A stretch of 64,000 nt of DNA from Escherichia coli. Its GTDB lineage: Bacteria > Pseudomonadota > Gammaproteobacteria > Enterobacterales > Enterobacteriaceae. The notes under the pieces are model-generated. The model ran no database searches, was not told the DNA's origin, and saw nothing but the letters and a program-made list of their open reading frames with translations. Position 1 is the first letter of the stretch. Each line of letters begins with the position of its first letter. A program made the translations under genes and the position numbers. Below, one piece after another: positions 58,347-59,941 of the stretch. The DNA lies in NCBI RefSeq assembly GCF_024223415.1, contig NZ_CP100500.1; one strand, 5' to 3'.

Positions 58347-59744
58347 ATGCCGCGCACTGTAACACATAATCCGGATAGCCCCAATAATGACGATGTTTTA
58401 GCCGCTTCTGAAAAATGGGACGCCTGTAAACCCCCCTATACCAGCGCACACATGAAAATCTGTGTTGCTGCCGCCAAAATCATCCTCGCTGCTTCCGGCG
58501 TGGCTCGCCGTTCCAAATACGAAAAAGAGAACTATCTCCGTATCGATTTCAGCAAAGCCGGTAAGGTTACATTTTACGCCGAGTTTCCAAAAAAGATGGG
58601 CCTCAAAGGTAAAAAGCTCGGCGAGTGGCCGGAGCTCGCTATCCAGCTGGCGCGCGAAAAAGCACTAGGTATGGCTGACGGTGGACTGCGGGCAGAGTCC
58701 GTACATGCAGCGCTGGAAATGTACCGGGATGACCTCAAAGCCAAAGTAGCCCGTCAGAAGCTGAGCCCGGACAGTTTCACAACCTATGGGGTGCGTATCG
58801 ACCGGATTAAATCAACGTTCGGCGAGCGCGAGGTGTTCAGCGACGTAACATACAGTCGGCTGGTGGAAGTGCTGGACGAGTGGATCGCCACTCGCTCGAA
58901 CAATAACGCCCTGGAGTTGTTTGCCGAGCTCCGTCGGTTCTGGAAGTTCTGCGCACCTACTCTTTGCAACGGCCGCAATGTTGCCGCCAGTCTGCCAGAT
59001 GATTATGTTTCCTCCCGCGTACAGAAACCCACCCCCACACGGCTTTTTACCGATATTGAGTCAATCGCCCGGCTCTGGCTCAATGTTGCCGCCTGCACCT
59101 CTGTACACCAGAAGAATGCTGTTCGCTTCATGATCATCACCGGAGTTCGTCCGATTAATGTCCATAACCTGCGCTGGGACTACGTTCACGAGGAGGTTGG
59201 TGAAATTGTTTATCCGGAAGGGGTTATCGGCATGCGAGGGGCTATGAAAACACAAAAGGCTTTCCGCCTGCCGATAACGCCTGAGATCCGGCGGATTATC
59301 GACGAGCAGAAAGCCTGGCGTGATTCAGTTCCTGAGTGCAACAGGGATTATGTATTTTTGCAGCCACGTGATCCAATGCAGCCATTTTCAAAACGATCAC
59401 TGGATAAGCTGGTGAAAACATACAGCCCGGACGGGGCTGTAAAAGGAATAAAACATGATGGGACTGTTAAAGGGAAAGACGGTGCATTTAATACGATGTG
59501 CCGTAAATTCCTTAAGAGCAATGTTATTGCCTTGATGAAGGAAAGAGGCTATTCCCGATCAGACCGAAGGGAAATCAGCCTCCTTTGCCTTCACCACTCC
59601 AGCAAGTCAGATGACCCGATGGCAGAACATTACGACTTTTCTGATGAGATTTTACAGGAAGAGATTGCGTTAAAGCGCGAAGCTTTCGAGGCTCACGAGC
59701 GGAGCATACTTGCGCAGGTGGCATTGCTACGGCGGCGAGGTTAA
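58347..59744 (+). CDS. Tyrosine-type site-specific integrase (phage integrase family), 465 aa
   Basis: ATG 6 nt after AAGGA; C-terminal catalytic region with ...LHHSSKSD...HYDF and conserved Arg residues; the track ORF starts 2 codons earlier at TTG. Confidence 0.9.
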   Translation: MPRTVTHNPDSPNNDDVLAASEKWDACKPPYTSAHMKICVAAAKIILAASGVARRSKYEKENYLRIDFSKAGKVTFYAEFPKKMGLKGKKLGEWPELAIQLAREKALGMADGGLRAESVHAALEMYRDDLKAKVARQKLSPDSFTTYGVRIDRIKSTFGEREVFSDVTYSRLVEVLDEWIATRSNNNALELFAELRRFWKFCAPTLCNGRNVAASLPDDYVSSRVQKPTPTRLFTDIESIARLWLNVAACTSVHQKNAVRFMIITGVRPINVHNLRWDYVHEEVGEIVYPEGVIGMRGAMKTQKAFRLPITPEIRRIIDEQKAWRDSVPECNRDYVFLQPRDPMQPFSKRSLDKLVKTYSPDGAVKGIKHDGTVKGKDGAFNTMCRKFLKSNVIALMKERGYSRSDRREISLLCLHHSSKSDDPMAEHYDFSDEILQEEIALKREAFEAHERSILAQVALLRRRG

Positions 59745-59941
59745 TACCGGCTGCGACACTTTTGAATAAAAGCGTCGACATTGCGGCGCTCATAACGAAC
59801 TACTTTTGCACTGAAACGAATTGGTGCCAGGATAGCCCGATGACGATGCTTAATATTCCACTCACATAGCGTTTTCTGTGTAATACCTAACTTTTGGCAT
59901 ACTTCATCCGGGGTGAGTAAATCGTCGGGTTTCTCGCTCAT
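59741..59941 (-). CDS. Excisionase/AlpA-family HTH DNA-binding protein, 66 aa (MSEKPDDLLTPDEVCQKLGITQKTLCEWNIKH...)
   Basis: ATG at 59941 preceded by GAGAGG and overlapping the helicase stop (ATGA); the track ORF is extended 66 codons upstream through the helicase gene in another frame. Confidence 0.75.
   Translation of the reverse strand: MSEKPDDLLTPDEVCQKLGITQKTLCEWNIKHRHRAILAPIRFSAKVVRYERRNVDAFIQKCRSRY

Follow-up and report, generated by a model that had tools for sequence, protein, structure and literature searches.

A 66-codon gene that converges on a prophage integrase gene in Escherichia coli probably encodes the excisionase, or recombination directionality factor (RDF), of a two-gene site-specific recombination module, a reading to which we assign a probability of about three in four. 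Its partner would be a tyrosine integrase with its target in yfhL, a ferredoxin gene, toward the 5′ end. The window analyzed here is a 64,000-nucleotide stretch of contig NZ_CP100500.1, and all coordinates refer to positions within it (Table 1). We observed the geometry of the locus, the coding status and fold class of the small protein, its strict association with the integrase, and the structure of the att site; how the two proteins would be expressed and act together is considered below in terms of these observations.

Table 1. Features of the int/xis locus and of the leftward gene string, with the basis for each
Feature	Position	Strand	Basis or remark
attL core TTCACACATATCACAATT, within the 5′ part of yfhL	58085..58102	.	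Alignment with the K-12 empty site
Phage arm of attL	58103..58346	.	Replacement 5′ end of yfhL at 58103-58132 (-)
Tyrosine integrase gene (int), 465 aa, targets yfhL	58347..59744	+	PF00589, PHROG 1, RefSeq annotation
Hairpin resembling a terminator, some 300 nt past xis, on the antisense strand within int	59421..59441	-	Close relatives only; function doubtful
TTAA, overlapping stops of int (TAA 59742-59744) and xis (TAA 59743-59741), TA common to both	59741..59744	.	Direct reading
xis-like gene	59741..59941	-	7.9 kDa, pI 9.66, MSEKPDDLLT...KCRSRY; MerR-like winged helix (HTH_17), putative recombination directionality factor
ATGA, xis start over helicase stop (TGA 59940-59938)	59938..59941	-	Direct reading; fits translational coupling
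SNF2-family helicase gene, 464 aa, directly upstream of xis	59938..61332	-	ORF and profile/PHROG matches
Rha/antirepressor-like gene, upstream in the leftward string	61377..62099	-	PHROG 63 at 2.5e-21; RefSeq name 'Rha family'
58-aa ORF, apparent first gene of the string	62159..62335	-	ORF list
Candidate promoter/operator of the leftward string	62367..62412	-	TTGACA at 62400-62395 between two copies of an 11-bp palindrome

A small gene inherited with its integrase

The 66-codon frame runs from an ATG at 59941-59939 to its TAA on the minus strand, direct reading and the list of open reading frames being in agreement, and a Shine-Dalgarno-like GAGAGG (59953-59948) lies six bases ahead of the ATG. 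The layout described in the earlier note holds. The same two sources place the gene on the strand opposite the integrase and convergent with it, and direct reading confirms both overlaps that the note had pointed out, that of the two stop codons in TTAA and that of the xis start with the helicase stop in ATGA. The gene is also, as had been claimed, the last of a leftward string. In our reading this string consists of the 58-aa ORF, the Rha-like gene, the SNF2 helicase gene, and xis.

Compared with allele L048, the gene carries 4 nonsynonymous and 34 synonymous differences, with dN far below dS. Homologous proteins fall into 24 clusters in Enterobacterales, and the 66-aa protein matches PHROG 4745 (E = 4e-27) as well as the excisionase PHROGs 66 and 1553. 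Judged from the sequence comparisons, namely the low dN, the homologue clusters, and the PHROG 4745 match, the frame is a real gene whose product is under strong purifying selection. A spurious ORF and a 132-aa GTG-extended ORF were both ruled out by the retention of a 66-70-aa form, the Shine-Dalgarno site, and the excess of synonymous change. Of the 25 best RefSeq matches, 9 list no annotated feature for the small gene.

The integrase matches PF00589 at 29.5 bits, above the cut-off of 27.1, and PHROG 1 at E = 8.4e-26. Its start is most likely the ATG at 58347 and not the TTG at 58341, since AAGGA at 58336-58340 precedes the ATG and the RefSeq call agrees. Several genera have orthologues of 465-466 aa that are 71-76% identical to it; a sequence search of the PDB with the integrase returned no match at E <= 0.01.

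In those related loci whose contig reaches that far, we found the 66-aa gene adjoining the same integrase gene (~465 aa) at its 3′ end, and yfhL adjoins int at every locus checked. What lies upstream of xis, on the other hand, is variable: an SNF2 helicase gene (466-509 codons) in some loci and other ORFs, of about 200-260 or of 68 or 125 codons, elsewhere. Because xis stays with int beside yfhL while its upstream neighbor changes, the two genes constitute one recombination module, and because xis travels with int across phage backbones, it behaves as expected of a cognate RDF gene. The product is a small basic protein encoded next to its integrase and inherited with it, the pattern looked for in an RDF, and the annotated gene tables hold no other excisionase-type gene next to int. 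Phages of the vB_EcoM-606R2 type have the helicase in common with the present element but neither xis nor int. Among 50,697 phage records searched with tblastn, homologues were found only in Serratia phage vB_SspS_OS31, for both Xis and Int. A query extending from yfhL to the Rha-like gene was at least 80% covered at yfhL in 155 of 5,426 complete E. coli genomes, and some yfhL prophages with the int/xis pair carry Stx2b.

Fold of the 66-aa protein

The earlier note had assigned the protein to an excisionase-type helix-turn-helix family, and profile searches of its relatives bear this out. The protein itself scores 25.8 bits against PF12728 (HTH_17), slightly under the gathering cut-off of 27, with E = 1.3e-5 and model positions 1-51 of 51 aligned. 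All 22 family members searched with Pfam match HTH_17 (best E 6.5e-7), and a precomputed PF12728 assignment is present on several homologues. Against TIGR01764 ('excise'), the score of 16.6 bits lies far under the cut-off of 28.8, with only the N-terminal 28 positions aligned.

An AlphaFold model of the protein (mean pLDDT 78.7) was matched by Foldseek to 4J2N, 8C3T, 8DGL, and 6AMA/6AMK (BldC) with probabilities of 0.97-1.0 and TMq, the TM-score normalized to the query, of 0.56-0.72. BldC is the best match; the model also resembles three excisionases, namely Pukovnik Xis (4J2N), that of GIsul2 (8C3T, TMq 0.72), and RdfS (8DGL), as well as N-terminal domains of MerR proteins. As modeled, the 66-aa protein thus has a MerR-like winged-helix fold in common with solved excisionases, three of which stand among the top structural matches. 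The MerR-like fold is also found in pure transcription regulators, namely BldC and the MerR family, so the fold alone cannot tell an RDF from a regulator.

A different assignment, suggested in the earlier note, would make the protein a transcriptional regulator of the AlpA type and not an RDF, one that works as activator or antiterminator on int or on other genes. Such a role would suit a small helix-turn-helix protein adjoining an integrase, and it would suit the names given to homologues, 'AlpA family transcriptional regulator' in one RefSeq genome and 'helix-turn-helix transcriptional regulator' in others, as well as the regulatory role of BldC, to which the model is structurally closest. 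An hhalign comparison with K-12 AlpA did align 27 columns over the helix-turn-helix, but with a probability of only 4.7%, and none of the 22 family members matches Phage_AlpA (PF05930), even at E <= 1. Together, these Pfam and hhalign results give membership in the AlpA family no support. The note argued from RDFs being usually co-transcribed with int, but Phi24B, TorI, Cox, and Apl show that an RDF need not be. Integrase and RDF genes are uncoupled in KplE1, HK620, and Sf6 (TorI) and also in P2 and 186 (PMC2951348). Uncoupled or convergent arrangements of this sort have ample documentation, and validated excisionases with a transcript apart from that of int are known from Phi24B, KplE1 (TorI), P2, and 186. 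The presence of three solved excisionases among the top structural matches likewise argues against a regulator, as does the lack of any other excisionase-type gene beside int in the gene tables when OS31 was nevertheless recovered as phage DNA after induction. We therefore consider it very unlikely that the protein is an AlpA-like regulator in place of an RDF.

Expression of the module and the convergent junction

Under the excisionase reading, the two genes would be expressed from separate transcripts. The leftward string has a candidate promoter/operator, so designated from sequence motifs, in which copies of the palindrome ACCACGGTGGT lie at 62402-62412 and 62377-62387; the whole window holds 5 matches to it against 0.76 expected. 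A divergent Arc-family gene (62449-62763, +) adjoins this region. As xis is the last gene of this early string and is apparently translationally coupled to the helicase gene through ATGA, Xis would be made only once induction has lifted repression of the string. This winged-helix protein, small and basic, would then bind and bend the DNA of the att arms and, with Int, drive excision between attL and attR, as its fold and its linkage to int suggest.

Int, in turn, would be made from a promoter of its own in the ~215-bp phage arm between attL and int. The core of attL agrees with the att of 23 bp described in OS31 (PMC7556043), and the attR copy of the core in a related Stx2b prophage reads TTCACACATATCTCAATT. 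Within the phage arm of attL we found a conserved tandem repeat, GCAACACAAAACCGCAACACAT, at 58253-58274 and a core-like ATGTGTGAGCTT at 58303-58314. The att arms, about 0.5 kb in all, have 7 copies of the motif AACACA, whose density in the window is 0.53 per kb; it is enriched in both arms, at positions conserved across genera, and TTACTGT is likewise repeated in both. All of these AACACA and TTACTGT repeats may be arm sites for Int. The tandem AACACA repeats and the core-like site of the attL arm probably bind Int, which makes autoregulation of the kind seen in KplE1 plausible.

With int reading away from attL, overlap between its promoter and the recombination arm at 58103-58346 is unavoidable, a KplE1-type configuration (PMC2951348). 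This geometry raises the possibility that the protein has two roles, acting both as RDF and as repressor of the int promoter in the attL arm, as do TorI of KplE1, Vis of P4, and Apl of 186, and different genera do have conserved motifs in the attL arm, no more than about 100 bp from the int start. These motifs resemble the att core, however, and may bind Int only. Nor did a promoter scan of the arm locate the int promoter: there was no sigma-70-like match at 9 or more of 12 positions in 58133-58346, and a cross-genus alignment of the attL arm contained conserved blocks of which none resembles a -10 element. The only sigma-70-like match nearby, at 58341-58370, lies inside the int start. Finally, the 66-aa protein has no sequence relationship to TorI (hhalign probability 0.2% against K-12 TorI), and neither TorI nor lambda Xis chains are among the top 50 Foldseek matches of the model. 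A dual role is possible in our view, though we regard it as the less probable case.

Because the overlapping stop codons leave no intergenic terminator, each of the two transcripts must end inside the opposing gene, where Rho would probably act on the untranslated antisense RNA. The absence of room for a terminator invites a further reading, in which the zero-spacer convergent layout is a selected regulatory device. Leftward induced transcription would run antisense into int and int transcription antisense through xis, and transcriptional interference or RNase III cleavage of the RNA duplex would set the Int:Xis ratio, an analogue of lambda sib retroregulation. Conservation of the junction is in keeping with such a device, as the 4-nt overlap is kept in most of 83 related loci and, spelled TTAA, CTAA, or CTAG across genera, persists down to 62-71% protein identity. 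However, in about nine related prophages a 521-530-bp insert with a 128-aa ORF separates xis from int, which shows that the overlap is dispensable, and four-base overlaps are the modal class in prokaryotes, ATGA being the co-directional form and TTAA, CTAA, CTAG, and TTAG the convergent ones (PMC2174442). The xis/int stop overlap as such is therefore statistically unremarkable, an already documented kind of layout.

No convincing conserved intrinsic terminator was found downstream of xis or int, as a selected junction would allow: a consensus scan for intrinsic terminators after either gene gave 6 sites against 5.4 in shuffles, and a scan for hairpins followed by T-tracts over nine loci found no terminator conserved in all lineages. 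Counts of promoter-like sites likewise equal the shuffle expectation, and this equality of both classes of site with chance speaks against a device. A device would be in keeping with a 40-nt hairpin (59544-59583) that several relatives also have, although this hairpin lacks clean compensatory changes, and the only Rfam family in 57000-64000 is ohsC, with none matching the xis/int region. Also in its favor, int codons 376-450 show a slight dip in synonymous divergence, to 0.35-0.45 against roughly 0.5-0.6 in most of the gene; the lowest values are in codons 1-50, adjoining attL. An overlapping RNA element at the junction was not accepted from this dip, as the reduction at codons 376-450 is mild and not decisive.

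Genome compaction is the best account of the convergent 4-nt overlap of the stops, and selection of the overlap as a control device seems unlikely to us. Equally doubtful is the wider proposal that interference at the junction or processing of duplex RNA tunes Int:Xis from lysogeny to excision, with the 66-aa protein perhaps also repressing the int promoter in attL. If true, it would amount to an int/xis circuit unlike the lambda pI/pL/sib scheme, at work in Stx2b-converting prophages.

Comparison with known recombination modules

On the preferred reading of the protein as an excisionase, the int/xis pair would mobilize a set of prophages that insert into yfhL, a site recognized as a target of Stx phages only in 2023 (PMC10675304). 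The Stx2b prophages at yfhL examined in one study resisted induction and isolation (PMC12029490), so the E. coli module is only presumed to be active; a likely excisionase provides a handle for asking why they resisted. The layout itself, with int uncoupled from xis, is a known theme and leaves current understanding unchanged.

True homologues of the pair are p01/p02 of Serratia phage OS31, with Xis 70% and Int 76% identical. OS31 resembles the E. coli element in the convergent TTAA stop overlap, in having xis as the last gene of a leftward early operon, and in its target, the 2x[4Fe-4S] ferredoxin gene that corresponds to yfhL; the att core is equivalent as well. Its backbone differs, being lambdoid with cI/cro, so that the pair lies at the end of the cI-proximal leftward operon and a DnaQ-like exonuclease gene, not one for an SNF2 helicase, stands upstream of xis. 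Induction with mitomycin C yielded OS31, whose att site of 23 bp has been defined within the ferredoxin gene; p02 was named a putative excisionase by the OS31 authors, an assignment that is bioinformatic only (PMC7556043).

The Stx phage Phi24B resembles the present module in organization. Compared with lambda, its int lies in the opposite orientation and is served by a promoter of its own, while its experimentally validated Xis is encoded next to the int 3′ end on an early leftward transcript under repressor control (PMC3064807). As in Phi24B, stx is found in relatives of the E. coli element, in the form of Stx2b. No sequence homology between the two modules was detected in the tblastn search of phage records, and their integration sites differ. 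The IntS-TorI systems of KplE1, HK620, and Sf6 are similar in that an RDF of 66 aa is transcribed apart from int, and both Int and the RDF repress an int promoter that overlaps attL (PMC2951348). TorI differs from the 66-aa protein in its lambda-Xis-type fold, and similarity between the two is not detectable.

AlpA of CP4-57 in E. coli K-12 is likewise small and of helix-turn-helix type, belongs to an integrative element, and influences excision, but alpA is co-oriented with intA, with yfjH between them, and is not convergent as xis is. The mycobacteriophage Pukovnik Xis, GIsul2 Xis, RdfS, and BldC are like the 66-aa protein in predicted fold and in belonging to the HTH_17 or 'excisionase family' sequence class, at identities of only 13-30%. 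BldC stands apart from the others as a developmental regulator and not an RDF, one that binds cooperatively, head to tail, on direct repeats.

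The 66-aa gene and its integrase partner

The earlier note described the 66-aa gene (xis) as an excisionase-family helix-turn-helix gene, and from its convergence on the gene for a 465-aa tyrosine integrase (int) suggested that it may have an AlpA-like regulatory role. The family and the geometry stand, while the role drawn from convergence is not supported. Direct sequence reading and the six-frame ORF list agree on the convergence, the TTAA stop overlap, and the ATGA start overlap. The most likely int start is ATG 58347, which is preceded by AAGGA, agrees with RefSeq, and gives 465 aa. 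The int ORF and its ATG-CCG start are conserved in five of six aligned lineages, and the remaining one (L087) starts ATGAAA.

Features of the int/xis region, the attL phage arm and the leftward control region
Feature	Coordinates	Strand	Detail
Tandem repeat GCAACACAAAACCGCAACACAT	58253-58274		attL phage arm
Core-like ATGTGTGAGCTT	58303-58314		attL phage arm
TTAA	59741-59744		holds both int and xis stops; direct sequence reading
int ORF stop	TAA 59742-59744	plus	direct sequence reading and ORF list
xis ORF, 66 codons	ATG 59941-59939 to TAA 59743-59741	minus	direct sequence reading and six-frame ORF list
GAGAGG Shine-Dalgarno sequence		minus	six bases upstream of xis start
SNF2 helicase ORF	59938-61332	minus	stop TGA 59940-59938; forms ATGA with xis start
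TTGACA flanked by two exact 11-bp palindromes ACCACGGTGGT	62367-62412	minus	palindromes 25 bp apart
Arc-family gene, 104 aa	62449-62763	plus	divergent from leftward string; Pfam Arc 3e-12
Second Arc-family gene, 46 aa	62782-62922	minus	converges on 104-aa Arc-family gene

Besides Serratia phage OS31, 80 viral contigs and three other contigs encode relatives of Xis. Wherever the contig reaches that far, the gene converges on the 3′ end of int, the integrase being the same ~465-aa one, and yfhL lies just past int in the loci that were checked. What lies upstream of xis varies: some loci have the SNF2 helicase gene, joined to xis by the ATGA overlap, and others have ORFs measuring ~200-260 codons or else 68 or 125 codons; OS31 has a DnaQ-like exonuclease gene. 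This constant int partner beside a changing upstream neighbor indicates that Int and Xis were inherited together across different phage backbones, which is the behavior of a cognate recombination module. When 50,697 phage records were searched for homologs of the two proteins, OS31 was the sole match for both. That phage was recovered through mitomycin C induction, and its ends are marked by a 23-bp repeat within a 2x[4Fe-4S] ferredoxin gene; its p02 was labeled by the authors a putative excisionase without viral homologs (PMC7556043).

Family and fold of Xis

The xis product (7.9 kDa, pI 9.66) matched PHROG 4745 (‘DNA binding protein’) at 4e-27, excisionase PHROGs 66 and 1553 more weakly, Pfam HTH_17 at 25.8 bits, slightly below the cut-off of 27, and TIGR01764 ‘excise’ weakly, at 16.6 bits (cut-off 28.8). 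A search of 5.8 billion proteins returned 24 clusters of homologs, those with a named source being all from Enterobacterales (Klebsiella, Enterobacter, Citrobacter, Kluyvera, Raoultella and Salmonella), across which the pattern LLTP-EVC...ITQKTL..WN..HRH...LAPI.F..KVVRYE....AF..KCRS.Y is well conserved. Among the comparisons of alleles, one gave 34 synonymous and 4 nonsynonymous differences. An AlphaFold model from the family alignment is a winged helix (pLDDT 78.7), with best PDB matches to BldC (6AMA/6AMK), which a PDB sequence search also returned, mycobacteriophage Pukovnik Xis (4J2N), the GIsul2 (8C3T, TMq 0.72) and RdfS (8DGL) excisionases, and RacA and MerR-family N-terminal domains.

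HTH_17 was matched by 22 of 22 aligned family members and Phage_AlpA by none of them, and a profile comparison gave a probability of 4.7% for membership of the AlpA family, arguing against the AlpA-like role. Convergence does not count against an excisionase either, since in Phi24B, where int is inverted relative to lambda, a validated xis adjoins the int 3′ end (PMC3064807). We therefore consider the 66-aa protein a putative HTH_17/MerR-like excisionase paired with a yfhL-specific tyrosine integrase, with a probability of about 0.75. Membership of the TorI family likewise found no support in profile comparison, with a probability of 0.2%. In 9 of the 25 best-matching RefSeq E. coli genomes the gene has no listed annotated feature, and the remainder name it ‘helix-turn-helix transcriptional regulator’ or ‘AlpA family transcriptional regulator’.

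The prophage at yfhL

The window is Escherichia chromosome, carrying ssrA, an rRNA-operon tRNA-Glu, and the order rnc-era-recO-pdxJ-acpS-ohsC-yfhL in a stretch ~97-97.6% identical to E. coli K-12. The ohsC sRNA of the shoB/ohsC toxin-antitoxin locus (57198-57274, minus; Rfam RF02495, 103 bits) occupies the acpS-yfhL interval, the same place as in K-12. The prophage starts within the 5′ coding part of yfhL (57872-58132, minus), where identity with the K-12 empty site runs to ...TTCACACATATCACAATT (58085-58102). The first ~10 yfhL codons past 58102 are phage-encoded, such that MSLLITKRC replaces MALLITKKC (58085-58132), and by implication the prophage also brings a phage-borne promoter for the rebuilt gene. 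At attR of the prophage of E. coli CFIAFB20190157, TTCACACATATCTCAATT precedes the original 5′ end of yfhL; in a related prophage (L084, ~9318-9375), attR keeps this displaced end.

Among 5,426 complete E. coli genomes, 155 covered, at yfhL, at least 80% of a query running from yfhL to the Rha-like gene. The CFIAFB20190157 element (L001) is an Stx2b prophage with a PolA/DUF5906/SNF2 replication region. It is the closest complete relative of the window prophage; its replication region is non-lambdoid, the DUF5906 protein being primase-like, and its stx2b (39017-40252) lies downstream of a Q-type antiterminator and tRNA-Arg. The window stops before the equivalent region. Insertion of Stx prophages at yfhL was reported as new in 2023 (PMC10675304), and induction and isolation of yfhL Stx2b prophages examined later were not achieved (PMC12029490). 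That the int/xis module carries Stx2b prophages gives it some practical relevance, with little conceptual surprise.

Stop overlap and proposed control of int and xis

The 4-nt stop overlap was found in most relatives. It is retained where Xis identity is 62-71% and the host flanks differ between lineages; its usual spelling is TTAA, with CTAA replacing it in L081-L083 and CTAG in L088. It is not obligatory: in about nine apparently full-length prophage contigs a 521-530-bp insertion separates xis and int, and in one related locus a 174-bp gap does so, with int shortened. The insertion holds a 128-aa ORF co-oriented with int (L060 5250-5636, L076 5246-5632, and about seven more) that had no Pfam match and looks like a moron. 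The modal overlap in prokaryotes is 4 bp, typically ATGA between co-directional genes and TTAA, CTAA, CTAG or TTAG between convergent ones (PMC2174442). Kept in relatives, dispensable, and of the modal class, the int/xis overlaps are thus real and inherited yet ordinary.

With no space between the stops, and no convincing conserved terminator found by two scans, each transcript must run into the other gene and end there; Rho-dependent termination on untranslated RNA is a plausible means. An Rfam search of the int/xis region gave no family match, and its synonymous-site profile gives no decisive signal on antisense regulation. Within int, a 40-nt imperfect inverted repeat (59544-59583; ~-18 kcal/mol on the xis-sense strand) has the same offset in several relatives, without clear compensatory changes.

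As int is directed away from attL, the ~215-bp phage arm (58133-58346) must hold its promoter, which a search did not identify; the same arm must supply, on the opposite strand, the promoter of the rebuilt yfhL. Both the sequence and the placement of GCAACACAAAACCGCAACACAT and ATGTGTGAGCTT are kept across Escherichia, Serratia OS31, and two further lineages, and the attL and attR arms, ~0.5 kb in all, hold seven copies of AACACA, compared to 0.53 per kb in the window. These motifs are probably arm-type and core-type Int sites overlapping the int promoter, a layout that resembles KplE1, where intS is repressed by IntS and the RDF TorI (PMC2951348). In int codons 1-50 (58347-58496), which include an AACACAT copy at 58361, synonymous divergence among relatives is ~0.2, compared to ~0.4-0.67 in most of int, alongside many amino-acid changes; this pattern could reflect overlapping cis elements beside attL or recent recombination.

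The leftward string runs from a 58-aa ORF through the Rha-like and SNF2 helicase genes to xis, which is last. Between it and the 104-aa Arc-family gene lie the ACCACGGTGGT pair and TTGACA, from which we infer what looks like an operator-controlled promoter of the string. ACCACGGTGGT is absent from the otherwise related L001. The Arc-gene and palindrome arrangement looks similar to the P22 immI (arc/mnt/ant) control region. Under such control, Xis would be made only after de-repression of the leftward string and Int independently, the same logic that has been demonstrated in Phi24B, where Xis is made upon de-repression and Int separately.
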